Assembly: GCA_964583985.1 (NCBI GenBank)
Contig: CAZOYD010000008.1
Span: 21,894-85,893 of the forward strand
Source: an uncultured archaeon
GTDB taxonomy: Archaea; Asgardarchaeota; Lokiarchaeia; Sigyniarchaeales; SOKP01
Reading direction: 5' to 3'
Length of the DNA: 64,000 bases
The translations under genes were made by a program, and so were the position numbers. The notes beneath the pieces are model-generated. The model was not told the origin of the DNA and did no database searches. It saw nothing but the letters and a program-made list of their open reading frames with translations. Of the stretch, positions 5,478 to 32,480 are shown piece by piece (position 1 is the stretch's first letter; each line of letters starts with the position of its first letter).

Positions 5478-5580
5478 GGGCCTGTGGATTAGTCGCAGAT
5501 AATGAAAAAAAAATTCTCTTTTTTTCTGCATCGCTTCCTTGGCATGGAAGAGGCCGGGGGTTCAATTCCCCCCAGGTCCA
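5478..5580 (+). tRNA. tRNA-Ala(GGC) with ~29-nt D-arm intron (5502-5530)
   Basis: Acceptor GGGCCTG/CAGGTCC with G3:U70; anticodon arm CTTCC-TTGGCAT-GGAAG; T-arm GGGGG-TTCAATT-CCCCC; BHB helix CAGA/TCTG. Confidence 0.9.
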
Positions 5581-20505: not shown

Positions 20506-20702
20506 ATAAAATATATAAATATTTTGATCGCTTTTAAATAGGATCTGAGTTGAAATCCTAGGGTTTTAAAAAAAAACATAAAAAAGGAACCCAATCTGGT
20601 ATTTTATGTTGCTTAATAGAACGTTTATTAGCTTCAAATAACATGCTTTTAACCTAAAAATAGCGTATAAAAAAATCAAGTGATAATCTTTTAAAAGCCT
20701 AA

Positions 20703-21317
20703 CTACCAGATTGAAAAATCTTTTTCTTTTGAGAAATCCCTCTTTAAGGGTTTTCCCGTAATTAAGGTGAGGTATCTAATATATGCAGATTGTTCTGCGC
20801 CTGTTACGTATTGTAACGCGTCTTCTAAAGTCATTCCTTTAGCAAAAATCCCATGACCACGTACTACTACAAAAGGATAATTTTTTAATATTTTTGGTAC
20901 TTCAATTGAGGTATAATATGCTCCCGCGGGTATTTTTACATCAATAATCGGTATTTTTTTGTATAATGCAAAACCTTCGGCGTCAATACACGTTATTTCA
21001 TCTTCGATTAACGAAAGAGCTACACAATAAGGATTATGTGCATGAATTACTGCCATTGCATCTGTTTCTAAATAAATTGCTCGATGAACTCCAAGTTCAG
21101 TACTAGCAATAAGTGATCCAGAATCTTCTTCTTTTAAATCACAAATTACTAAATCCTCTGGCTCCAGATTACCAAGCATTGCTGCTCTTCTTTTTATAAT
21201 AATCTTACCACCTGACTTTATTGAAATATTACCAGAATGGCTAGTATTATATCCATGTCTAACTAAATGCTCTCCAATCTTCTTAAACATATTATAAATA
21301 GACTCGTCTATAATCAT
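20703..21317 (-). CDS. Class II aldolase; probable rhamnulose-1-phosphate aldolase
   Basis: SGNIS, STE..VH, IHAH and GHG metal ligands; last gene of the rhaA operon. Confidence 0.85.
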   Translation of the reverse strand: MIIDESIYNMFKKIGEHLVRHGYNTSHSGNISIKSGGKIIIKRRAAMLGNLEPEDLVICDLKEEDSGSLIASTELGVHRAIYLETDAMAVIHAHNPYCVALSLIEDEITCIDAEGFALYKKIPIIDVKIPAGAYYTSIEVPKILKNYPFVVVRGHGIFAKGMTLEDALQYVTGAEQSAYIRYLTLITGKPLKRDFSKEKDFSIW

Positions 21318-21335
21318 GAGTTTCTCATATATTTT

Positions 21336-23129
21336 CTATAATTTAAAGTCAATTTCAAGATTTTTAATTAATTCCTTTTTAGGAACTCCTTCCTTATCCC
21401 AACCTCGTACAAAATAATATTGCTCTAACATGGATTCTAATGGTATTATATGACCCTTTGAAGCCCCTTCTTTTAGGGGTTCATTAAGAAACCTTGAAGG
21501 TAATGTATCATCATTTTTTGTAAAACCTTCTCTAATGTTAAACAGTCTTTCTAAATTATATATACGTTCTCCTATTTGAGTTAACCTAATAACATCAAAC
21601 TCAATACCAGTAATAGCTTTTAAGAAACGTGCATAATAATCAAGCCCTAATGCCCAACCTGCGAATGTGCAAATAACCAAACTATCTTCAATTGCTTTCT
21701 GATTTTGTTTTAATACTAGCAAATCAGGTTTCCCTGCTGTTGTAAACCTATCAATTTTTTTTGGGGCGGCAAATATCTCTAAGGATGCCATATATCCAGT
21801 AAGATGACATCCACCTCTATTGGAAGTGGCATATCCTAACGCATGCCCGATAGCACCTCTTGGATCATATGCGGGGAGTTCCAATCCTTTAACTTGCATA
21901 GCTATCTCTTCATTTTTATATCTCTTTGCTAATAATCTGGATCCTTCCCCAATTTGAGCTCCAATACCTTCTTTCTTAGCAATTTTTTCGACAATATTTT
22001 TTAGCATAATTGTGTTACCAAATTTTAAAGAAAGATCGTTCAAGAACCCTTTTTCATTTAATTCCATTCCGCATGAGATACTACCACCGCAAGATATTGT
22101 ATCAATTCCAAATTTATTGCATAAATAATTTGCCTGAGTTATCGTAATTAGGTCATATATACCTAAATTTGGACCAAGCGCCCAGACAGATTCATATTCT
22201 GGTCCTTTTCCCTGCATATCACCTGCTTTAGTTAATCTTCCGCATCTTATAGGGCAAGCATAACATCCTTCTCTCTCTTGTGTCAATTTCTTATTTATCT
22301 CTTCTCCACTTACTAAGCTAGCTCTCTCATCAAAACCTTTTTGAAAATTATTAATAGGAAACATACCCAATATATTAATCACATTAACTAAAGCAGAAGT
22401 TCCAAATTTCGGAAGTGAAGATCGAGTTATAGGAACCACTTTAATCTTATCTTGAGCGACTTCTACATACTTTTTCAACAATTCTTGATTATCAATATCA
22501 AATTTAGCATCACCACCTTTTACCACGATAGCTTTAAGGTTTTTAGACCCCATTACTGCTCCAACGCCTCCTCTTCCAAATGCTCTAGTTGCATCATTTA
22601 TTATTGCTGCTATCTTAATTAAATTCTCACCTGCAGGGCCAATCATAAGGGAATTAATTTTATTACCTTCAATCTTTTTTAATTCTTCTAAAGTCTTCTC
22701 AGTGTCGTATCCCCATAATTTAGAACCATCCTTTAATTCTGGTCCTTTTCCACCTTCTATTAAAAGATATCCTGGCTCTTTCAATCCCCCCTGAATTAAA
22801 ATACCATCATACCCACATCTTTTCATTACAACGCCAAAGGATCCCCCTGAATTAGAAAAAAATATCCCATTGGTTAAGGGTGATTTTGTGACTAACGAAA
22901 AGCGTCCATTTGTCGGAATTATAGTTCCTCCAAACGGTCCCGTTGTAAATATCAATAAATTCTTTGGATCTAAGGGATCAATATTAGCTGGAATTCTTTC
23001 CGATAATAATTTAACGCCTATCCCCCTACCTCCAATAAAATTTTCTAATACCTCTTCCGATAATAAGATTTCACTAATTTTTTCTTGATCGAGGTTTATT
23101 TCAAGAATTTTGTTATTCAATCCTTTCAT
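21336..23129 (-). CDS. aor: Aldehyde:ferredoxin oxidoreductase (W/Mo-pterin)
   Basis: GRGGVGAVMGSKNLKA, CYACPIRC, PEYES and RGGCH motifs. Confidence 0.93.
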   Translation of the reverse strand: MKGLNNKILEINLDQEKISEILLSEEVLENFIGGRGIGVKLLSERIPANIDPLDPKNLLIFTTGPFGGTIIPTNGRFSLVTKSPLTNGIFFSNSGGSFGVVMKRCGYDGILIQGGLKEPGYLLIEGGKGPELKDGSKLWGYDTEKTLEELKKIEGNKINSLMIGPAGENLIKIAAIINDATRAFGRGGVGAVMGSKNLKAIVVKGGDAKFDIDNQELLKKYVEVAQDKIKVVPITRSSLPKFGTSALVNVINILGMFPINNFQKGFDERASLVSGEEINKKLTQEREGCYACPIRCGRLTKAGDMQGKGPEYESVWALGPNLGIYDLITITQANYLCNKFGIDTISCGGSISCGMELNEKGFLNDLSLKFGNTIMLKNIVEKIAKKEGIGAQIGEGSRLLAKRYKNEEIAMQVKGLELPAYDPRGAIGHALGYATSNRGGCHLTGYMASLEIFAAPKKIDRFTTAGKPDLLVLKQNQKAIEDSLVICTFAGWALGLDYYARFLKAITGIEFDVIRLTQIGERIYNLERLFNIREGFTKNDDTLPSRFLNEPLKEGASKGHIIPLESMLEQYYFVRGWDKEGVPKKELIKNLEIDFKL

Positions 23130-24409
23130 AAACTCGTCCTCTTCTTCAATACATCATTTTCATAATCCTCAACAATATGGAACCAATCTCTTCCAATGGG
23201 AACTTTATGAATATAACAATAATAATCCCAAACTGAACCAAATGGAAGCGTTTTTAACTCCTCTAGAAAAGCTAAACGTTGAAAATATTTGTTATTTTCC
23301 TCATAATTGAGTAAAAGTTCTCGAGGTTGTAGTAATGCATATAAAAAACTCTTTAATGTGGCTCTCGCTCCTATAACCCAAGCTGCTATCCGATTTATAG
23401 ACGCATCAAAAAAATCCAACCCTATAAATATTTTGTCAAATGATTTTATTCGGATAACTTCTTCTGCAATCTGGATTAAATCGTCATTTAAAACAACAAC
23501 ATGGTCACTATCCCAACGTAAACTTCTACTAATATGAAGTAAGATTCCTTTAACGAAAGGAACAATTGCTGAAATTTTATCAGCAATAGATTCAGTGGGA
23601 TGGTAATGCCCAGAATCGATAGTTAACATAAGGTTATTCTTCACAGCATAACTCAAATAAAATTCATGGCTTCCTACTACAAAAGCTTCACTTCCAATAC
23701 CAAAAAGTTTTCCTTCTAATGAATCTTGAATATAACGAGAATCTAATTCTTGCTCCAAAATACGATCCAAAGAATCTTTTAATAATTCTCTGTAACCTAT
23801 ACGGTCAACAGGAGTATCTTTTGAACCATCTGGTATCCAGATGTTATGGATTACTTTAATATTCAGTTGTTTCCCTATCTCTACACTGATTTCACGACAC
23901 CTCATTACATGGTCTATCCAAAAATTGCGGATTTCAGGATCTTTACTACTTAATGTGTATCCTGAATCTGCTTTAGGATGAGAAAATAGAGTAGAGTTGA
24001 AATCTAATCCCAATTTCTCAATTTTTGCCCAGTCTATCCATGTTTGGAAGTGATTTGCATTAATTTCATTACGATCTACGAATTTATTAGCAAAATTCCC
24101 ATAAATAGCATGTAGGTTAACTCTGTGATTTCCTGGTATAAGTGAAATTGCTTTTGAAAGGTCATTCTGAAGTTCCATAATAGTTCTTGCTTTTCCGGGA
24201 TAACTTCCAGTTGCTATTATACCTCCTCCTGTTAATTGAGAATTGGGATGCTCAAATCCTCCTACATCATCTCCTTGCCAACAATGAATTGAAAGTGGAA
24301 TATTCTCCATTTTTTCAATAACCAAGTCTGTATCAACTCCCAATTCAGCATATTTTACTTTAGCGATTTCATATGAATCTTCTGTTTGATTAGATTTCGT
24401 TATGATCAC
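23126..24409 (-). CDS. rhaA: L-rhamnose isomerase
   Basis: HCWQGDDV.GFE, NLHAIY, WIPDGSKD, KLFGIGSE, RWDSDHVV and LDFFDASINR motifs. Confidence 0.96.
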   Translation of the reverse strand: MIITKSNQTEDSYEIAKVKYAELGVDTDLVIEKMENIPLSIHCWQGDDVGGFEHPNSQLTGGGIIATGSYPGKARTIMELQNDLSKAISLIPGNHRVNLHAIYGNFANKFVDRNEINANHFQTWIDWAKIEKLGLDFNSTLFSHPKADSGYTLSSKDPEIRNFWIDHVMRCREISVEIGKQLNIKVIHNIWIPDGSKDTPVDRIGYRELLKDSLDRILEQELDSRYIQDSLEGKLFGIGSEAFVVGSHEFYLSYAVKNNLMLTIDSGHYHPTESIADKISAIVPFVKGILLHISRSLRWDSDHVVVLNDDLIQIAEEVIRIKSFDKIFIGLDFFDASINRIAAWVIGARATLKSFLYALLQPRELLLNYEENNKYFQRLAFLEELKTLPFGSVWDYYCYIHKVPIGRDWFHIVEDYENDVLKKRTSL

Positions 24410-24435
24410 ATATAGTTATAACTTTTTATAACAAA

Positions 24436-27144
24436 ATGTATTATACTATAAATATGATAAAAACACCTTTTAATTTAAAATGTGAGTATCTATCTAATCC
24501 AATTGGGATTGATACAAAATCACCCCGCTTTTCATGGTTGATAGATCATTCAGAAAGAAATCAAAATCAATCCGCCTATCAAATTCTTGTTGCTTCTAAT
24601 AAGAATATATTGAAATCTAACAGTGGAGATTTATGGGATAGTGGTAAAATCGACTCTGAAAATCATTTCAACATTAAATATAAAGGTAAATCCCTTGAAA
24701 GTGATAAAACTTATTACTGGAAAGTAAGATGGTGGGATAAGAATTCAATAGAAAACAAATATAGTGAAATTGCGTTTTTTGGAACCGCACTATTTGAAGA
24801 AAGCGAATGGACTGCAAATTGGATAAGTAGACCTGAATTTTTAGATAAAACATCTCTTAGAAAGCTTAGGTATAAGGGACCACAAGGTCCATTTGGAGCA
24901 ATTAAAGAGGTGCATGCGATTTATCTTAGAAAAGAGTTTCAGATATCTAAACCAATTAAATCTGCTAAATTGTACATATGTGGAATCGGATACTATGAAC
25001 TCCGAATTAATGGATATAAGATCGGTGATAGAATCCTAGAACCCGCCCAAACCGATTATCATAAACTTGCTTTATATTCTACGTATGATATTAAGGATGT
25101 TATAGAAGAAAATAATGCTATTGGCGTTATTCTAGGCAATGGAAGATGTGTTGATCACTTTAAGTATGATTATCCTAAACTAATTCTTCAAGTTCATATC
25201 CATTATCAAGATGGGTCTAATGAACAAATATCAACTGATGAAAGTTGGAAAGTCTCAACTGGTCCAATAAAAGAGAATGGTATTTATTATGGTGAAGTAT
25301 ATGATGCTCGAGAAGAAGAAATTGAATGGGACAAAGCCGAATTTGATAGTACTAACTGGATAAATGCTGCAGTTGTTTCTGGACATAATTTAGCTTCACA
25401 AATGATGGAACCAATTCGAATTACTAAGACATTAAAACCACAAAAAATAAATAGCCCTCAACCTGGAATGTATATCTTCGATTTTGCCCAGAATTTTACA
25501 GGAGTATGTAAATTGAAGGTTCAAGGACCAAGAGGTAAAAAAGTTCAATTAAGATTTTCTGAGCTTGTTTATAAAGATGGAACTCTAAATCGAGCAACAA
25601 CTGGAGAAGCAGTAGCTACAGACGTTTATATACTTAAAGGAGAAGGTGAAGAAGTTTATATCCCACATTTTACATATCATGGATTTCGATATGTAGAACT
25701 TACAGGATTCCCAGGTGTTCCAACTAAGGAAACTCTTACAGGTTTATTCTTTCATAGTAATGTTACAAGAGCAAGCGAATTTAATTGCTCAAATCAATTA
25801 ATAAACCAAATTCACACTAATATTATTTGGGGTCAATTGAGTAATTTGATGAGTATTCCGACAGACTGCCCCCAAAGAGCTGAAAGGCAAGGCTGGATGG
25901 GAGATGCCGCCCTTACAGTAGAAGAAGCTATTTTTAATTTTGATATGGCAAGATTTTGTACCAAATATTTGAGAGATATAAAATTGGCTCAGAAGGATGA
26001 TGGGAGTCTATCTGATGTTGTTCCTCCGTATTGGAAATTTTATCCCGCAGATCCTGCATGGGGTACCGCTTATATCACTTTTGCTTGGTATGTTTATTAT
26101 TATTATAATGACATTGAGATATTAAAGGAACATTACGATTCGATGAAAAAATACGTAGACTTCCTTGCATCTATTGCGGAGAATGACTTAATTTTAATAG
26201 GGAAGTATGGTGATTGGTGTCCTCCTTGTAATATTGTCTCTCGTAGAACTCCTATTGCGTTGACATCATCATGGTATTATTATCATGACACTCTCCTCTT
26301 ATCCAGAATAGCTAAGATTTTGAAAAAAGATGAAGATGTGAAATACTATGAAACCAAATTGAAGGTTATTAAAGACGCATTTAATAATAGATTTCTAAAA
26401 ATTGTTTATGACGTTCAAAAGTTAGCTCCAACTGATTTCTCAGTAAGTCAAACATCAAATACACTCCCACTCTATCTAAATATGGTTCCAGAAAAAAAGC
26501 GTAAACTTGTACTGGAAACACTCATTGAAAGTATTAAAAGAGAATTTGATTATCATTTCAATACGGGAATAGTAGGTACGCGCTATATATTTGATGTTTT
26601 AACCGATAATGGGTATCCAGATATAATATATAAGATGGTAAATCAAACTAGCTTTCCAGGATATGGTTATATGGTTAAAGAAGGAGCTACTACATTATGG
26701 GAAAGGTGGGAAAAATTAGAAGATGTTGGAATGAACTCTCATAACCACATTATGCTTGGATCAGTAGATCCTTGGTTCTTCAAATCGTTAGCCGGAATGA
26801 ATGCACTTGAGCCAAGTTGGAAATCAATAAGGATTAAACCGTTTATACCTGAAGATATGGACTATGTGAGCGCATCACTGAAAACAATAAGAGGGACTTT
26901 ACATGTATCATGGGAAAAATTGTCAGATATGTTTAAATTTGTATGCCATATTCCATTTGGATCTACTGCAGAATTATGGTTTCCAAAATATTCTAAAGGA
27001 AAAACATTAAAAGAGGGTCAAGTTGTCATTTGGGAGCAAGGGAAACAAATTAGTAATGATACTATTAAATTATTAGAAGAAATAGATGATTACCTTCTGT
27101 TTAAATTTGGTTCAGGGTATTATGAGTTTAAAATGGAGATGTGA
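24436..27144 (+). CDS. Alpha-L-rhamnosidase GH78 (likely start 24454)
   Basis: FTYHGFRY, PTDCPQR.ER.GW.GD, GATTLWERW and SHNH motifs. Confidence 0.95.
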   Translation: MYYTINMIKTPFNLKCEYLSNPIGIDTKSPRFSWLIDHSERNQNQSAYQILVASNKNILKSNSGDLWDSGKIDSENHFNIKYKGKSLESDKTYYWKVRWWDKNSIENKYSEIAFFGTALFEESEWTANWISRPEFLDKTSLRKLRYKGPQGPFGAIKEVHAIYLRKEFQISKPIKSAKLYICGIGYYELRINGYKIGDRILEPAQTDYHKLALYSTYDIKDVIEENNAIGVILGNGRCVDHFKYDYPKLILQVHIHYQDGSNEQISTDESWKVSTGPIKENGIYYGEVYDAREEEIEWDKAEFDSTNWINAAVVSGHNLASQMMEPIRITKTLKPQKINSPQPGMYIFDFAQNFTGVCKLKVQGPRGKKVQLRFSELVYKDGTLNRATTGEAVATDVYILKGEGEEVYIPHFTYHGFRYVELTGFPGVPTKETLTGLFFHSNVTRASEFNCSNQLINQIHTNIIWGQLSNLMSIPTDCPQRAERQGWMGDAALTVEEAIFNFDMARFCTKYLRDIKLAQKDDGSLSDVVPPYWKFYPADPAWGTAYITFAWYVYYYYNDIEILKEHYDSMKKYVDFLASIAENDLILIGKYGDWCPPCNIVSRRTPIALTSSWYYYHDTLLLSRIAKILKKDEDVKYYETKLKVIKDAFNNRFLKIVYDVQKLAPTDFSVSQTSNTLPLYLNMVPEKKRKLVLETLIESIKREFDYHFNTGIVGTRYIFDVLTDNGYPDIIYKMVNQTSFPGYGYMVKEGATTLWERWEKLEDVGMNSHNHIMLGSVDPWFFKSLAGMNALEPSWKSIRIKPFIPEDMDYVSASLKTIRGTLHVSWEKLSDMFKFVCHIPFGSTAELWFPKYSKGKTLKEGQVVIWEQGKQISNDTIKLLEEIDDYLLFKFGSGYYEFKMEM

Positions 27145-27213
27145 GAAACTAAAAAATAATTTATTCATTATGTTATCCGTTTATATAATATAAAAGATGT
27201 ATCATGTGGAAAA

Positions 27214-27984
27214 ATGATTGCTGAAAAAAGAAGAGCTAAAATAATAGAACTGGTTAATCAACAAGGCTCCGTTTCAATAGAGGAGTTACTTGAATTGTTT
27301 GATGTTTCTAGGATGACAATTTGGAGAGATTTGAAAGAACTTGAGATTAAAGGTCAATTAATTAGAGCTCATGGTGGAGCATTGAAAATTGATGAGCTTA
27401 GCGATAAAGAAGAAGAATTTGATAGACGAAGGAAAGAAAATCTAGCTGAAAAACGTTTGATCGCAAAGTTCGCAGCAAAAAACTATGTAAAGAACTCTGA
27501 TATAATTTTCTTGGATGGTGGTTCGACAGTATTAGAAATGATACCTCACCTAAAACAAGAAAATATAACTCTATTATCTAATGGCTTAAACACACTATTA
27601 CTAGCATCTAAGTTTCTACCTCATCTGAATGTTATCGGTTGTGGAGGTATTCTTCGAAAATCATCTTATACATTCGTGGGGCATGAAGCAGAGGAATTTT
27701 TTAATCGTTATAAAGTCGATACCGCCTTTATCAGTGGTACCGGTGTCACACTTGAGGATGGAATAATGGATCCACATCCTATGGAGATGGAAGTAAAAAA
27801 AATTATGTGTAAAAATGCAAAAACAGTTGTAGCTCTAATTGATTCGAGTAAATTTGAAAAGAGGTCACTTTCCACCTGCGTAAAGATTGAAGAAGTTGAT
27901 TTTCTTATTACAGATAAAAAGGTATCTAAAAAAAATATCGATGCTATTAAAGCGAAAAATGTAGATATTATAGTCTTAGATTAA
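27214..27984 (+). CDS. DeoR/GlpR family regulator
   Basis: VSRMTIWRDL HTH; HGGA, FLDGGST and DSSKF motifs. Confidence 0.95.
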   Translation: MIAEKRRAKIIELVNQQGSVSIEELLELFDVSRMTIWRDLKELEIKGQLIRAHGGALKIDELSDKEEEFDRRRKENLAEKRLIAKFAAKNYVKNSDIIFLDGGSTVLEMIPHLKQENITLLSNGLNTLLLASKFLPHLNVIGCGGILRKSSYTFVGHEAEEFFNRYKVDTAFISGTGVTLEDGIMDPHPMEMEVKKIMCKNAKTVVALIDSSKFEKRSLSTCVKIEEVDFLITDKKVSKKNIDAIKAKNVDIIVLD

Positions 27985-28014: not shown

Positions 28015-29514
28015 TTAAACTATCCCTTCCCAGATTTTATAGAGTGGATCTCCAATAGTTTCAATAACTTCAGGATTTATACTTAATTTCATAATATACC
28101 GTTTTTGTAATTCGTATACAGGCCAAGAAGGGATTCCGTTATGATCTGGGTGTCCTGATCGAGCAAAATTTAGCCAGGTGTCCATCATAATCTTAGTTAA
28201 TTTATGGGATTCCTCATTTACTTCTGTAGCTCCTTCCGCGAGATCTTGTTTATCAACGGTATCAAAGATAAAGGGGATTTCAAAACTATGAAGTGCAAAA
28301 CCAAATTTGGGAGATTTATAAGAAAACATGTACAAATAAATATCCGACTGGTGATTGATCATTGCTTCAAGAACACGTAAAATAGGAATCTTGAATGTAG
28401 AATCAGACAAAATTCCATCCCAATACATAAAAGGATTATCAGGGTATAACCCCTCCAGTTCAGATTTATAAGTATTTATTAATTTATTTAGATCTTCATC
28501 ATTAATCCCCTTTTTCTTGAAATTGGATTTAACAAATGTCATTATCAACTTTTTTTTGGCTTTCCCCGCTTCCTTTAAGAAATTAGAAAGAAATCCTAAT
28601 TCATTTTCATTATATCCTATCATCAATGGGATTTTTTGATAATTTCCTTTATTTAAAATTTCGATTGGTTGTTCTGGAATGATATTTCCATCAAGGAATG
28701 GCCAAAAAGGACTTTTATCCAAATTTAGTAAATCACCTACCATTTTCTTCTGAGTATTAATAATTATTTCAAAATCTACTTCTCGTAGTTGATCAACTTC
28801 ATTAACATCAATCTTGAGTTTTTTTAGGAATTTCAATCCACCCTCCCGAGATTTCTTGGGAACAAAATTCTGAGGATTTGCAGTACCACTTTGAACAATT
28901 GCCCGATGAAATAGACCTCTTGCTAAGGGGATTGCAAGTAAGATCAAGACGGACTGCCCACCGGCAGATTCTCCGAAGATTGTGATATTATCCGGATCTC
29001 CACCGAACAATTCTATATTATTATTAACCCATTTTAAAGCTGCGATCTGGTCTTGTATACCTAAGTTAGGTGGAATTCCGGACAAATTGAGAAATCCTAA
29101 AGCTCCAAGGCGATAATTAAAGCTAACGACAACGACATTTCCATAAGATGCAAGTCTTGAACCATCACTACGTGGTCGGGATCCTGCTTCAATAAGAAAT
29201 CCTCCCCCGTGGATCCAAAACAAAACGGGCCTTTTTTTATTATCAGAACCAGGAGTCCATATATTTAAATACAAACAATCCTCATTTTCAGGTAAATCTA
29301 TTTTAGATTCATCTTGTTGATGTTGCGGAGCTATAGATCCGAATTTAATGCAATCTTTCACATCATCCCATGGTTTTTTCGGATGAGGTTCTCGAAACCT
29401 TAAATCTCCAACAGGAGCTTCAGTATAAGGAATTCCTTTATATATTTCTATTCCATCATCAATATATCCACGAATTTTTCCAAATTTAGTTTCAATGATT
29501 TCAGTTAATTTCAT
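28015..29514 (-). CDS. Type B carboxylesterase
   Basis: EDCLYLNIW, HGGGF and FGESAG motifs. Confidence 0.93.
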   Translation of the reverse strand: MKLTEIIETKFGKIRGYIDDGIEIYKGIPYTEAPVGDLRFREPHPKKPWDDVKDCIKFGSIAPQHQQDESKIDLPENEDCLYLNIWTPGSDNKKRPVLFWIHGGGFLIEAGSRPRSDGSRLASYGNVVVVSFNYRLGALGFLNLSGIPPNLGIQDQIAALKWVNNNIELFGGDPDNITIFGESAGGQSVLILLAIPLARGLFHRAIVQSGTANPQNFVPKKSREGGLKFLKKLKIDVNEVDQLREVDFEIIINTQKKMVGDLLNLDKSPFWPFLDGNIIPEQPIEILNKGNYQKIPLMIGYNENELGFLSNFLKEAGKAKKKLIMTFVKSNFKKKGINDEDLNKLINTYKSELEGLYPDNPFMYWDGILSDSTFKIPILRVLEAMINHQSDIYLYMFSYKSPKFGFALHSFEIPFIFDTVDKQDLAEGATEVNEESHKLTKIMMDTWLNFARSGHPDHNGIPSWPVYELQKRYIMKLSINPEVIETIGDPLYKIWEGIV

Positions 29515-29590
29515 TTTGTAAAACCTTTATATATTATCAGATTGTATAATGCATTATCAATATTTAACAGTAATTTAAAAATAAACAGAT

Positions 29591-30952
29591 TTGAGTTTAA
29601 TGGAAAATAAAAAACAACTCAGTTCTAGAAATTTGTTGGGCTATGCACTAGGCGCCATTCCTAATGGATTGTTAGTATTCATCTTTGGATTAAAATATAT
29701 TCAGCTCTTTTTTGATAAGTTACATCTAAATCCGACTCTTTTTATCATTGGTCAATCAATTTACTTGGTTGTAAATGCTCTAAACGATCCGCTTTTAGGA
29801 CAAATGTCTGACAGAACAAATTCAAAAAAGTGGGGAAGTAAACGGACTATTTATATTAAATATGGGGCGCCACTTTGGGGATTGACATTCATGCTCGTCT
29901 GGTTTCCTTGGAGTTTTGATAATCAAATAATAATATTCCTTCATTTTATTATAAGCGTTTGTTTATTTGATACCATGCTTACCTTGGTAGTTTTAGTATG
30001 GATGGCATTATTACCAGAAATGACGTCTGATTTAGATGAGAGGAATAAAGGCAATTTGTATGCCATGATCTTAGGGGCTATATTTGTTCTTCCAATGTTC
30101 ATAATTGTTGGCGCAATGGATCCAACTTCATCGGAATTTGTTGGTTTAATGTTTATTGTGGCGATTTTTTCTACAATCTTATTAATAATAACTTCGTTTC
30201 TATGTCAAGAAAAACCCGAATTTCAAAAAGATGAGGGTCTTCCTTTAACTAAAGCCGTAAAAGAGACTCTAAAACAAAAGCCATTTTTAATTTACATGGG
30301 GTATATCTTCTGTGATGCTTTTCTTGGGTCAATAGGATTGAGTTATTTATTCATATATCTATTAGTCTTGGGTGAAGGAGGTCTCTTATACTATTTTGTA
30401 ATCTTTTTTTTCATTGGATACGGTTCCAATATACTCTGCATGAAATTAAGGCCAAAATGGGGGATGAGAAAGATCATGTTAAGGTTTGGAGTGTTAAAAG
30501 TGATACTAACTTTTATATTTTTTATCTTCATAGTCTTTATTAATGATTCCATCTTAGTAGTAATTGCCTTAGCAGTATTGACGCTATTGGGAGGTTATAG
30601 CATATTTAATACTCCAATTTTATACCTTTCTATAGATCAGGATGAGTTGAAAAATGGATCAAGAAGGGAGGGAATGTTCTTAGGAATGGACGCGTTAATT
30701 CACAAACCATCTCAAAGCATTGGTCCGATAGTTGCGACAATTGTTCTTGGTATATTTGGATACCTACAAGATTCTCCCGTGCAACCAGATTCGGCAATAC
30801 TCGGTATTAAAATACTCATGTTTCTGGTTCCCGCAATAGTATCAGCCATTGGTTTAACCTTTATATACTTTTATCCATTACACGGGGAGAAATTAGACAA
30901 CATGAGAGCAGAACTCCATAATCTACATGCTAAAAAACGAGAAAATATCTAA
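29591..30952 (+). CDS. GPH/MFS_2 family sugar transporter
   Basis: NDPLLGQMSDR and RREGMF motifs; ~12 TM helices. Confidence 0.9.
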   Translation: MSLMENKKQLSSRNLLGYALGAIPNGLLVFIFGLKYIQLFFDKLHLNPTLFIIGQSIYLVVNALNDPLLGQMSDRTNSKKWGSKRTIYIKYGAPLWGLTFMLVWFPWSFDNQIIIFLHFIISVCLFDTMLTLVVLVWMALLPEMTSDLDERNKGNLYAMILGAIFVLPMFIIVGAMDPTSSEFVGLMFIVAIFSTILLIITSFLCQEKPEFQKDEGLPLTKAVKETLKQKPFLIYMGYIFCDAFLGSIGLSYLFIYLLVLGEGGLLYYFVIFFFIGYGSNILCMKLRPKWGMRKIMLRFGVLKVILTFIFFIFIVFINDSILVVIALAVLTLLGGYSIFNTPILYLSIDQDELKNGSRREGMFLGMDALIHKPSQSIGPIVATIVLGIFGYLQDSPVQPDSAILGIKILMFLVPAIVSAIGLTFIYFYPLHGEKLDNMRAELHNLHAKKRENI

Positions 30953-30977: not shown

Positions 30978-32480
30978 TTATAATTGATAATCCGTACTCA
31001 TGAATTTTATAAATTTATGATATGCCTTTATCCACCTTGTGATATCTTCAGGATAAAAGTTTTTGATAGAAAAAGAGCGAATTACAATACGTCTTAAATC
31101 TTCAAGTCGGTTAATTAATCCTACTGCTTTTGCTTGAATTAATATATTACCAATAGCAGTAGCTTCGGTTGGTCCTGCTTTAATTGGAATATTCAGAGCA
31201 TTTGCTGTAAATTGATTTAATAATTGATTAGAAGATCCTCCTCCTATAATATGTAAGATCTTGACCTTTTTTTCAGTAATTTTTTCCAATTCGTCAATTA
31301 CTTGCTTGTATCTAAGTGCTAAACTTTCAAATATTACTCTGGCAATATCGCCTATCGATATTGGAGGGATCTGATCACTCATTTCGCAAAATTCTTGTAT
31401 CGCCTCGTTCATATTAGGAGGATTATGAAAGAGATGATGATCTGGGTTTATAAAGCATTGGAATGGTTGTGCTTCCGCTGCCTTCAATTCAATTTCCTCC
31501 CAAGTATGGCATAACCCTTGCTTTTCCCATTCCTTTTTACATTCTTGAATTATCCATAATCCAGTCACATTTTTTAAGAATCTTATTGTATTTTCAACAC
31601 CACCTTCGTTTGTAAAGTTAAACTCAAGTGATTTGGCGTTTATGATTGGTTTATTCAATTCAACACCTAAAAGACTCCACGTTCCGGAACTTAGATAGGA
31701 CCATTCTCCACTTTCGTACCTTTCCATTTCAACAGGAACTGCCGCTATTGCAGAAGCGGTATCATGGCAAGCAGGAGCGATTATATTAGTATCCTGATTT
31801 ATGCCAACTTCATGAATAATTTCTTTTCTTAGCACTCCTATCAGTGTTCCTGAAGGAACAATTTTTTGGAACAATCTTGATTTTAAACCCAACATTTTTA
31901 TCAATATTTGAGACCAATCACGCGTGTTTAGATTGATTAATTGAGAAGTAGTAGCAATTGAATATTCAGAGCATTTTTTTCCGCATAATAAATAATTTAA
32001 ATAATCAGGGATCATCAGAAGTGTTTCAGATCTCGCTAATTGTTTAGAATCGTGGTAAATGAGAGAAAATAACTGAGTAGAAGTATTTATTTCCATGAAT
32101 TGGATACCGGTAAGCTTGAATATCTCTTCTTTAGGCACCTTCTCAAACATGAAGTTAAGCATTCCTTTAGTTCTTGAATCTCTATAGTGATAAATAGGTT
32201 CAACAAGTTGATCATTTTTGTCTAATAAACCAAAATCCACACCCCAAGTATCAATTCCTATGCCAAAAACCGTCTTTCCATATTTAATTACATATCTTTT
32301 AAAGCCATTTAAGATTTCATTATAAATAGCTGCGATATCCCAAAGAAGGGAACCATCTTTTATAATTCCCCCATTAGGAAATCGATATATCTCATCTAAA
32401 GCAAGTTTGTTGTCATTTAGAGTACCTACAATGGCTCTTCCCGTGCTAGCTCCAATATCAAACGCTAAAAACCGTTTCAA
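30978..32480 (-). CDS. rhaB: Rhamnulokinase (FGGY)
   Basis: DIGASTGR, IDTWGVD, HDTASA, SSGTWSL and TNEGG motifs; AGGAGG ribosome-binding site. Confidence 0.93.
   Translation of the reverse strand: MKRFLAFDIGASTGRAIVGTLNDNKLALDEIYRFPNGGIIKDGSLLWDIAAIYNEILNGFKRYVIKYGKTVFGIGIDTWGVDFGLLDKNDQLVEPIYHYRDSRTKGMLNFMFEKVPKEEIFKLTGIQFMEINTSTQLFSLIYHDSKQLARSETLLMIPDYLNYLLCGKKCSEYSIATTSQLINLNTRDWSQILIKMLGLKSRLFQKIVPSGTLIGVLRKEIIHEVGINQDTNIIAPACHDTASAIAAVPVEMERYESGEWSYLSSGTWSLLGVELNKPIINAKSLEFNFTNEGGVENTIRFLKNVTGLWIIQECKKEWEKQGLCHTWEEIELKAAEAQPFQCFINPDHHLFHNPPNMNEAIQEFCEMSDQIPPISIGDIARVIFESLALRYKQVIDELEKITEKKVKILHIIGGGSSNQLLNQFTANALNIPIKAGPTEATAIGNILIQAKAVGLINRLEDLRRIVIRSFSIKNFYPEDITRWIKAYHKFIKFMSTDYQL

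Follow-up and report, generated by a model that had tools for sequence, protein, structure and literature searches.

A proposed ferredoxin-linked lactaldehyde oxidation step in the L-rhamnose gene cluster of an Asgard archaeon

We describe a bacterial-style rhamnose gene cluster from an uncultured Asgard (Loki-type) archaeon. It probably specifies a phosphorylative route for L-rhamnose in which an aldehyde:ferredoxin oxidoreductase (AOR) oxidizes L-lactaldehyde and thereby reduces ferredoxin. The cluster lies in a window of 64,000 nucleotides, the whole stretch of DNA analyzed here. This reading rests wholly on comparative genomics, and no gene of the cluster has biochemical or expression data behind it. 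If it is true, strict anaerobes can oxidize the C3 aldehyde half of a deoxy-sugar to lactate or pyruvate plus H2 without excreting 1,2-propanediol. Such a route would give the textbook pathways for rhamnose and fucose a ferredoxin-linked final step and would shift the predicted fermentation products to lactate, acetate, and H2 rather than 1,2-propanediol. Redox balance and ATP yield would change wherever deoxy-sugars are degraded in this way in anoxic sediments, and perhaps also in gut-type Bacteroidales. In Asgard archaea, the route would represent an accessory, patchy sugar pathway yielding low-potential electrons, which fits an H2-releasing syntrophic lifestyle. Moreover, one well-delimited AOR clade would gain a specific, testable job. 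To our knowledge, most AOR paralogues have no known physiological substrate, and we know of no enzyme to which L-lactaldehyde:ferredoxin oxidoreductase activity has been assigned.

The rhaA-aor-aldolase unit

Three genes identified from open reading frames and profiles are arranged in tandem on the minus strand. The first gene of the operon, rhaA (positions 23,126 to 24,409), encodes an E. coli-type L-rhamnose isomerase of 427 amino acids. It is followed by aor (21,336 to 23,129), which encodes a 597-residue oxidoreductase of the tungsten-type AOR family, and by a gene for a short, FucA-like class II (Zn) aldolase of 204 residues (20,703 to 21,317). The stop codon of rhaA and the start codon of aor share a 4-bp ATGA overlap with the purine-rich sequence GAAGAGGA immediately 5' of it, and 18 bp separate aor from the aldolase gene. 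These reading frames are exactly as the original prediction described them, and its placement of an AOR inside a rhamnose operon is borne out by the gene order and the overlap. Gene content, order, and coupling are thus directly visible in the DNA, and co-transcription is inferred. T-rich tracts (T7 and T5; minus strand, 20,656 to 20,676) lie 27-47 nt past the aldolase stop codon and, within the unit, occur after the aldolase only. They may mark the end of an archaeal transcript, an inference from reading the sequence.

RhaA matches PF06134 over its full length (1.8e-183) and exceeds the cut-offs of both equivalog models, scoring 643 against 572 for NF002203 and 588.9 against 584.95 for TIGR01748. 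At the sequence level, the claim that an archaeon carries a phosphorylating RhaA/RhaB route holds, the kinase being rhamnulokinase-like. The best 120 homologues of RhaA are 63-81% identical to it and all the named ones among them are from Asgard archaea, leaving a bacterial donor unresolved. No FucI, RhaM mutarotase, or Ldh_1_N domain was found in the genome.

The AOR spans both family domains, AFOR_N (PF02730, 239.8 bits, profile positions 1-198 of 199) and AFOR_C (PF01314, 446.7 bits, 3-385 of 385). Its closest solved structure is the P. furiosus AOR, 1aor (E = 2e-164, 551 bits). Matches to other branches are weaker (FOR, 333 bits; WOR5, 229; BamB, 155), and the GAPOR model yields 54 bits, far under its cut-off of 1300. 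Judged by these scores, the protein is an AOR sensu stricto and lies outside the FOR, GAPOR, WOR5, and BamB branches. It shares its domains with the P. furiosus enzyme, and C289, C292, C296, and C487 align to the [4Fe-4S] cysteines of that enzyme and E313 and H442 to its Glu313 and His448. These six residues are invariant in 12 clade members. The catalytic residues are thus observed to be intact; activity, the use of tungsten, and ferredoxin as the acceptor are inferred. Five residues (F184, F242, L318, K457, and R501) are diagnostic of the aldolase-linked AOR clade relative to its nearest sampled neighbors. The P. furiosus AOR is assigned to aldehydes of amino-acid fermentation and, unlike the window AOR, is not tied to an aldolase.

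The aldolase consists of a single Aldolase_II domain (PF00596, 2.8e-31), and its closest PDB entry is the T. thermophilus FucA, 2fk5. Among NCBIfam models it matches PRK08660 best, reaching 184.8 bits where the cut-off is 203; partners in the bacterial modules score 217-240. We rejected an identity as RhaD, an equivalog of about 274 residues, because PRK03634/NF002963 gives only 22.1 bits against a cut-off of 170. The prediction of a short FucA-like enzyme rather than RhaD holds at the sequence level, with the PRK08660 score falling slightly short of its cut-off, and these profiles revealed no RhaD-type aldolase in the cluster. A fusion of the RhaEW type was also ruled out, since there is no second domain and no short-chain dehydrogenase (SDR) in the cluster. 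We looked for the Zn ligands (HxH plus H), catalytic Glu, and phosphate-binding S-G-N motif of FucA-like aldolases; the invariant residues are S26/G29/N30, E74, H92, H94, H155, and the C-terminal W204. We propose that the enzyme is an L-rhamnulose-1-phosphate aldolase giving DHAP and L-lactaldehyde, a substrate that is inferred and a reaction whose stereospecificity is unknown. Orthologues of 60% identity are located in fucose loci, which suggests that the enzyme is promiscuous or that its specificity has shifted. A complex prediction for the AOR and the aldolase, made with substrate channeling in mind, returned a score of 0.01 against a mark of 0.32, which speaks neither for nor against binding.

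AOR-aldolase pairs in other genomes

How widespread is this arrangement? A search for rhaA-aor adjacency in other genomes had been suggested. In the window's genus, rhaA and this aor occur in the same 8 of 26 genomes and are adjacent in every one. In the window's family, 12 genomes have both genes, none has rhaA alone, one has aor alone, and 54 have neither, with the caveat that closely related genomes do not count as independent samples. RhaA is also encoded directly upstream of the AOR-aldolase pair in many Asgard loci. The rhaA-aor-aldolase arrangement is far from chance and recurs in all rhaA-bearing genomes of the genus and on many other Asgard contigs.

The pairing of AOR and aldolase follows phylogeny. 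All 46 aldolase-adjacent AORs among the 89 that we sampled fall in one clade (SH-aLRT 98) of 54 sequences, which includes the window AOR with its cognate aldolase downstream. Five of the remaining eight members are at contig ends, and three are from Thermoplasmata and have no aldolase. None of the 89 has an aldolase neighbor outside this clade, and only three state changes are needed to explain adjacency on the tree. Among AORs at least 52% identical to the window AOR and with at least 1.5 kb of downstream DNA, an aldolase is present in 36 of 36 loci, compared with 10 of 37 at 45-52% identity. Similarly, among the AORs of the 300 Asgard species genomes sampled, the aldolase accompanies every one with at least 54% identity and none with 49-52%. 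The aldolase tree recovers groups matching those of the AOR tree, indicating that the pair is inherited as a unit.

The pair is found in Asgard archaea, Bacteroidales, Bacillota, Chloroflexota, and Atribacterota, beside RhaA, RhaI, or FucI with fucosidases. In a Dehalococcoidia locus, it is flanked by a RhaI-type isomerase, which is not homologous to RhaA, and by a rhamnulokinase-like kinase. In Moorellaceae, its neighbors are FucI, an ABC transporter, and a kinase; in Bacteroidales, they are FucI, a FucP-like MFS transporter, GH29, and GH95. The rhamnose and fucose contexts converge on one product, L-lactaldehyde. Because this pair recurs in rhamnose and fucose operons of bacteria and of further archaea, ferredoxin-linked oxidation of lactaldehyde is the most likely role of the AOR. 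Conserved synteny of the two clades strongly backs this part of the original prediction, as does the perfect co-occurrence of aor with rhaA within the genus, and its enzymatic core stays an inference in the absence of an enzyme assay or transcript data. We consider it somewhat more likely than not that the pair is a portable cassette for ketose-1-phosphate cleavage and ferredoxin-linked aldehyde oxidation, exchanged between Asgard archaea and Bacteroidales and deployed in rhamnose, fucose, and DHAP-shunt operons, with the window AOR dedicated to L-lactaldehyde.

Gene trees had been suggested as a means to detect horizontal transfer. The findings point to exchange of the module between domains, with Bacteroidales; the direction of transfer and the donor of rhaA are unresolved. 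An AU test of the two Asgard subclades as one clade without Bacteroidales gave p = 0.043 for a group picked after the tree had been seen, which is too weak to fix the direction.

Fate of L-lactaldehyde and relation to known pathways

In the proposed route, rhamnosides would be imported through the GPH symporter and cleaved by the GH78 enzyme, after which RhaA would isomerize L-rhamnose and RhaB phosphorylate L-rhamnulose. The short FucA-like aldolase would then split L-rhamnulose-1-phosphate into DHAP and L-lactaldehyde. The AOR, whose gene is translationally coupled to rhaA, would oxidize L-lactaldehyde to L-lactate and pass two electrons to ferredoxin, replacing an NAD-linked AldA or FucO. 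Reduced ferredoxin might find its outlet in H2 or a syntrophic partner, and genes for two [NiFe]-hydrogenase large subunits are present in the genome. The fate of lactate is likewise inferred, possibly involving LarA and a GlcD-type D-lactate dehydrogenase. In one Asgard locus (L037), the pair is followed by genes for LarA and for an oxidase resembling GlcD, and a LarA of 63% identity is encoded elsewhere in the window's own genome. However, with the genome's own LarA, LUD, and GlcD as queries, this was the only one of about 85 loci with LarA and GlcD within 10 kb of the pair, so a link to lactate oxidation is not general in our sample.

Could the AOR instead be a broad aldehyde scavenger, with the bulk of the lactaldehyde reduced to 1,2-propanediol by an Fe-ADH or oxidized by an NAD-dependent dehydrogenase encoded elsewhere? 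Outside the cluster, the genome carries five Fe-ADH (PF00465) and two aldehyde dehydrogenase (PF00171) genes, and other fates of lactaldehyde are therefore not excluded. The genome also has 14 AOR paralogues, and the window AOR resembles the broad-range P. furiosus enzyme most closely. We nevertheless consider this explanation unlikely, because only this AOR clade is aldolase-linked, without exception in the close loci, because gains and losses of the AOR track those of rhaA across the genus, and because the rhamnose and fucose loci that we inspected showed no Fe-ADH or Aldedh gene.

The pair might also serve another ketose-1-phosphate, making the rhaA neighborhood secondary. Candidates are glycolaldehyde-yielding pentuloses and the DHAP-shunt intermediates 5-deoxyribulose-1-phosphate and methylthioribulose-1-phosphate, whose cleavage yields acetaldehyde and (methylthio)acetaldehyde, respectively. 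The DHAP shunt, which salvages 5'-deoxyadenosine and methylthioadenosine, uses a kinase, an MtnA-type isomerase, and a class II aldolase of the same subfamily as the one described here that likewise releases DHAP and a small aldehyde. In Halanaerobiales, one locus (L088) has the pair after MtnA and MtnK, each scoring over its NCBIfam cut-off, which shows that the AOR clade is not restricted to lactaldehyde and suggests a general logic in which an aldolase releases an aldehyde and the AOR oxidizes it. The Thermoplasmata members, moreover, have no sugar genes nearby. Yet the shunt differs from the proposed rhamnose pathway in its substrate and aldehyde, and the cluster in the window, where aor and rhaA overlap, is free of mtn genes, mtnA and mtnK included. 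Of the three class II aldolases encoded in the genome, only this one has a rhamnose context, the other two having no such link, and the profiles showed no RhaD-type enzyme in the cluster. For the window, such a role seems quite improbable. Still harder to credit is a reductive AOR that makes lactaldehyde from lactate to feed the synthesis of 6-deoxy-ketose phosphates or lactate-derived cofactor parts. AORs are reversible in acetogens, and archaeal FucA-like aldolases have been connected with the lactaldehyde/lactate supply for methanogen F420. Against this, the context is wholly catabolic (glycosidase, symporter, isomerase, and kinase), acid reduction requires electrons of very low potential, and the distribution of the module follows fucosidase and rhamnosidase loci.

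The oxidative route that we propose resembles the phosphorylative pathways of E. coli, in which AldA or FucO acts after RhaA-RhaB-RhaD and FucI-FucK-FucA (PMC3870299). The isomerase is the orthologous RhaA, an FGGY kinase and a class II Zn aldolase have corresponding roles, and DHAP and L-lactaldehyde are the expected products. It differs in its Asgard host, in having a short FucA-like aldolase rather than RhaD, and in assigning the lactaldehyde step to a pterin/[4Fe-4S] enzyme of the AOR family, for which ferredoxin rather than NAD(H) is expected. In Bacillus subtilis and Chloroflexus aurantiacus, the last two steps are taken over by a non-orthologous protein, RhaEW (YuxG) (PMC3870299). There, as in the window, the aldolase and lactaldehyde oxidation are genetically tied, by a fusion rather than a fixed gene pair; however, RhaW is an NAD-dependent short-chain dehydrogenase, a domain missing from the window cluster. 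That paper mentions neither ferredoxin nor archaea. The premise that characterized archaeal rhamnose routes are non-phosphorylative agrees with PMC10838023, where Reinhardt 2019 is cited for the diketo-hydrolase route of Haloferax volcanii. The Haloferax route has wholly different enzymes and intermediates, with no such isomerase, kinase, or aldolase and no lactaldehyde/AOR step.

The AOR-family tungstoenzyme WOR1 of E. limosum has lactaldehyde among its best in vitro substrates (PMC11725836). It is bifurcating (NAD and ferredoxin) and is linked to growth on lactate and to aldehyde detoxification (PMC11725836); unlike the window AOR, it lies outside any deoxy-sugar operon and has no reported aldolase partner. 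Our literature search found no paper on a rhamnose pathway variant with an AOR lactaldehyde step. The published precedents are the in vitro activity of WOR1 and one metagenomic speculation.

Neighboring genes and a candidate operator

The GH78, DeoR, GPH transporter, and rhaB genes that the original prediction listed as neighbors are all adjacent, together with an esterase gene. The GH78 alpha-L-rhamnosidase (24,436 to 27,144, plus strand; 902 residues) has all five rhamnosidase Pfam domains. Next come a DeoR-family regulator with HTH_DeoR and DeoRC domains (27,214 to 27,984, plus) and a type-B carboxylesterase (COesterase; 28,015 to 29,514, minus; PF00135, 8.9e-123). These are followed by a GPH/MFS_2 glycoside:cation symporter (29,591 to 30,952, plus; PF13347, 4.8e-50; TIGR00792) and a rhaB-like FGGY kinase, a putative rhamnulokinase (30,978 to 32,480, minus). 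The kinase scores 489.9 bits with TIGR02627 against a cut-off of 527.95; the next best model, fuculokinase, reaches 155.5, about one third as much. Homologues of the esterase with 53-71% identity lie beside the cluster in related Asgard rhamnose loci (L015-L017, L032, L116, L117, and L122), and a DeoR homologue adjoins the AOR-aldolase pair in two further loci (L011 and L035).

The 26-bp divergent spacer between rhaA and the GH78 gene contains a palindrome, GTTATAA-N4-TTATAAC (24,415 to 24,432), that may be the operator of the DeoR protein, a candidate assignment from sequence alone. Pattern matching located a second copy 5' of deoR (27,172 to 27,189) and a third in the divergent spacer between the esterase and transporter genes (29,533 to 29,550). 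The pattern RTTAT-N8-ATAAY has seven matches in the window against 1.46 expected, a number reached in none of 100 shuffles, and three of the seven fall in intergenic regions of the cluster.

A rhamnose gene cluster containing an AOR

Three minus-strand genes form a tight row: rhaA (L-rhamnose isomerase; 23126-24409), which is full length and exceeds both of its NCBIfam equivalog thresholds; aor (aldehyde:ferredoxin oxidoreductase, AOR; 21336-23129), with complete AFOR_N and AFOR_C domains; and a class II aldolase gene (20703-21317) with an Aldolase_II domain. These ORFs match exactly the location given in the original prediction, which also described a 4-bp overlap of aor with rhaA and 18 bp between aor and the aldolase gene. 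The overlap is the tetranucleotide ATGA, common to the rhaA stop codon and the aor start codon, and the spacing measured 18 bp. As read from the sequence, a purine-rich GAAGAGGA precedes this ATGA, and the row's only T7/T5 tracts follow the aldolase stop codon. The neighbours predicted for the row, GH78, DeoR, a GPH transporter and rhaB, all adjoin, and a type-B carboxylesterase is also present. The transporter is a GPH/MFS_2 symporter, and rhaB is by profile a rhamnulokinase-like FGGY kinase (489.9 bits, slightly below the NCBIfam cut-off of 527.95).

The palindrome RTTAT-N8-ATAAY matches the window seven times, where 1.46 matches are expected. Three intergenic copies, in the rhaA/GH78 spacer (24415-24432), the spacer before deoR (27172-27189) and the esterase/transporter spacer (29533-29550), fit a putative DeoR operator common to the cluster, which remains a candidate without binding data. 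rhaA, which starts with GTG, and the GH78 gene diverge from start codons only 26 bp apart (24409-24436). Either the promoters overlap neighbouring coding regions and the transcripts are leaderless, or a start codon is mis-assigned.

The AOR is nearest to P. furiosus AOR (1aor, E 2e-164), with far lower scores for FOR, WOR5 and BamB. Its [4Fe-4S] cysteines (C289, C292, C296 and C487) and the E313/H442 pair are conserved. F184, F242, L318, K457 and R501 set the aldolase-linked AOR clade apart from its nearest sampled neighbours; these five positions are leads to specificity and not evidence of it. The aldolase had been described as a short FucA-like enzyme rather than RhaD, and this description holds: it has 204 residues and scores 22 against the RhaD cut-off of 170. 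Its best NCBIfam model is PRK08660 (184.8 bits, cut-off 203) and its closest solved structure is T. thermophilus FucA. No variation is seen in the phosphate motif S26-G29-N30, at the catalytic E74 or at the Zn ligands H92/H94/H155. Its stereospecificity, for rhamnulose-1-P or fuculose-1-P, is undetermined because orthologues 60% identical to it occur in fucose loci. All 15 aligned AOR-linked aldolases also share an invariant C-terminal tryptophan, within a conserved basic/aromatic tail (KEKxFSxW).

Linkage of the AOR and aldolase genes across genomes

How general is the pairing of aor with the aldolase gene? An AOR-clade alignment served to collect 80 loci from species-representative genomes, in which tblastn then placed homologues of the proteins encoded in the window. 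The aldolase gene lay downstream in all 36 loci with an AOR at least 52% identical to the window's and at least 1.5 kb of downstream DNA, immediately next in 34 and after one intervening gene in 2. Where the AOR was 45-52% identical, an aldolase gene was present in only 10 of 37 loci. A maximum-likelihood tree of 89 AORs placed all 46 aldolase-adjacent AORs in one 54-row clade (SH-aLRT 98), and none of the AORs outside that clade had an aldolase neighbour. The clade's other eight rows comprise five at contig ends and three Thermoplasmata without the aldolase. Among 300 Asgard species genomes sampled independently, AORs at least 54% identical were always followed by the aldolase gene, bar one locus (L113) whose contig ends just past aor; those 49-52% identical were never followed by it in the same genomes. 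The groups of the AOR tree reappear in the aldolase tree, where a long branch separates them from the genome's other class II aldolases; the pair has therefore been passed on together.

Gene trees had been proposed as a check for horizontal transfer. In both trees, the pairs from Bacteroidales fucose loci (L012, L023, L026 and L050) have Asgard pairs as their closest relatives, and the Bacteroidales clade groups with two Asgard subclades (97 in both trees); Helarchaeota form the next branch in the AOR tree. This grouping in both trees therefore requires inter-domain transfer. The AU test gave p = 0.043 for a group picked post hoc and does not settle the direction of transfer.

The surroundings of the pair involve both rhamnose and fucose genes. 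When rhaA-aor adjacency was sought in other genomes, as the original prediction proposed, RhaA was found directly upstream of the pair in Asgard loci, with GH78, GPH, RhaB and often a GH29 homologue nearby. The genes flanking the pair in one Dehalococcoidia locus encode a rhamnulokinase-like kinase and a rhamnose isomerase of RhaI type (619 bits, cut-off 531), not homologous to RhaA. The gene order in Moorellaceae strain AZ2 is FucI, ABC transporter, AOR, aldolase and FGGY kinase, and in Atribacterota a FucI-like gene adjoins the pair on the opposite strand. In Bacteroidales, fucosidases of families GH29 and GH95 surround the pair, or else it belongs to an operon-like series that runs NrtR/AraR regulator, AOR, aldolase, MFS and FucI. 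Besides DHAP, the single downstream intermediate common to rhamnose and fucose catabolism is L-lactaldehyde (PMC3870299), on which these contexts would converge.

A Halanaerobiales MAG has MtnA, a solute-binding protein, MtnK, AOR and class II aldolase in one row (L088:6471-12380), with MtnA and MtnK both above their cut-offs. The arrangement is that of a DHAP-shunt-like salvage operon, where the aldolase would release acetaldehyde or (methylthio)acetaldehyde and AOR would oxidise the released aldehyde. As a general rule, we infer from gene context that AOR takes whichever aldehyde the partner aldolase releases, putatively lactaldehyde in the window; the activity itself is inferred.

Of 26 genomes sampled in the window's genus, eight carry rhaA and the same eight carry this aor (78-83% identity); in every one of them the two genes are no more than a few bases apart. 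At family level, 12 genomes have both genes, none has rhaA alone, one has aor alone and 54 have neither. Although the relatives are not independent samples, this pattern shows that the cluster is accessory and is gained or lost as a whole.

A proposed ferredoxin-linked route for L-lactaldehyde

In the proposed pathway, rhamnosides would be imported and hydrolysed by GH78, L-rhamnose would be isomerised by RhaA and the product phosphorylated by RhaB, and aldolase cleavage would yield DHAP and L-lactaldehyde. AOR would then catalyse L-lactaldehyde + H2O + 2 oxidised ferredoxin -> L-lactate + 2 reduced ferredoxin. Acid/aldehyde couples lie near -0.58 V, and the AOR step would therefore be strongly exergonic with ferredoxin. 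The electrons could exit as H2; the genome encodes two [NiFe]-hydrogenase large subunits. Lactate may, by inference, proceed to pyruvate. Unlinked to the rhamnose cluster, the genome encodes two LarA homologues, GlcD-like oxidases and a single LUD-domain protein. In Promethearchaeota AMARA_1S, the genes immediately after aor-aldolase encode a lactate racemase of LarA type and a GlcD-like FAD oxidase (L037:12482-15468), an order that suggests a putative extension from L-lactate through D-lactate to pyruvate.

The predicted oxidation of lactaldehyde by AOR with ferredoxin is supported by the conservation of the pair, its rhamnose and fucose contexts and its co-occurrence with rhaA. Lactaldehyde could also be processed by enzymes encoded elsewhere in the genome, which has five Fe-ADH and two aldehyde dehydrogenase genes. 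With oxidation by AOR, the cluster would represent a new form of phosphorylative deoxy-hexose pathway, an interpretation that is supported without an assay or transcript for any cluster gene. One AOR clade thereby gains a probable physiological substrate.

We found no paper that assigns the lactaldehyde step of rhamnose or fucose degradation to an AOR. A comparative-genomics study that reconstructed bacterial rhamnose pathways in six phyla makes no mention of ferredoxin or of archaea (PMC3870299). Lactaldehyde is among the substrates that E. limosum WOR1 oxidises in vitro (PMC11725836), and Desulfofundulus converts 1,2-propanediol to lactaldehyde and lactate, with alcohol oxidation attributed to an Adh1-AOR pair (PMC13541210). 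One MAG paper speculated that AORs detoxify rhamnose-derived lactaldehyde (PMC9324843). Characterised archaeal rhamnose routes had been called non-phosphorylative, in line with a source in which the characterised route is the diketo-hydrolase one (PMC10838023).

The host genome and its other AORs

The window has 33% GC and a 103-nt tRNA gene (5478-5580) that presumably carries an intron, consistent with an archaeal host. The closest homologues of AOR and RhaA are annotated as Lokiarchaeota/Promethearchaeota, with Thor-, Hod- and Hermodarchaeota also present, and the host is accordingly an Asgard archaeon. Elsewhere in the genome, a 575-aa protein of unknown substrate (G000:C1:64353-66080; L139:12354-14081) fuses a D-2-hydroxyacid dehydrogenase (2-Hacid_dh) to a class II aldolase domain, the same aldolase-dehydrogenase fusion logic as in RhaEW; its gene adjoins those of an FGGY kinase and an SCP2 protein. 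The MAG (3.8 Mb, 138 contigs) encodes 14 AOR paralogues. Three paralogues other than the cluster's, on contigs C33, C37 and C77, lie 1.5-11 kb from Fe-ADH genes and may form AOR/ADH pairs for alcohol-acid interconversion.
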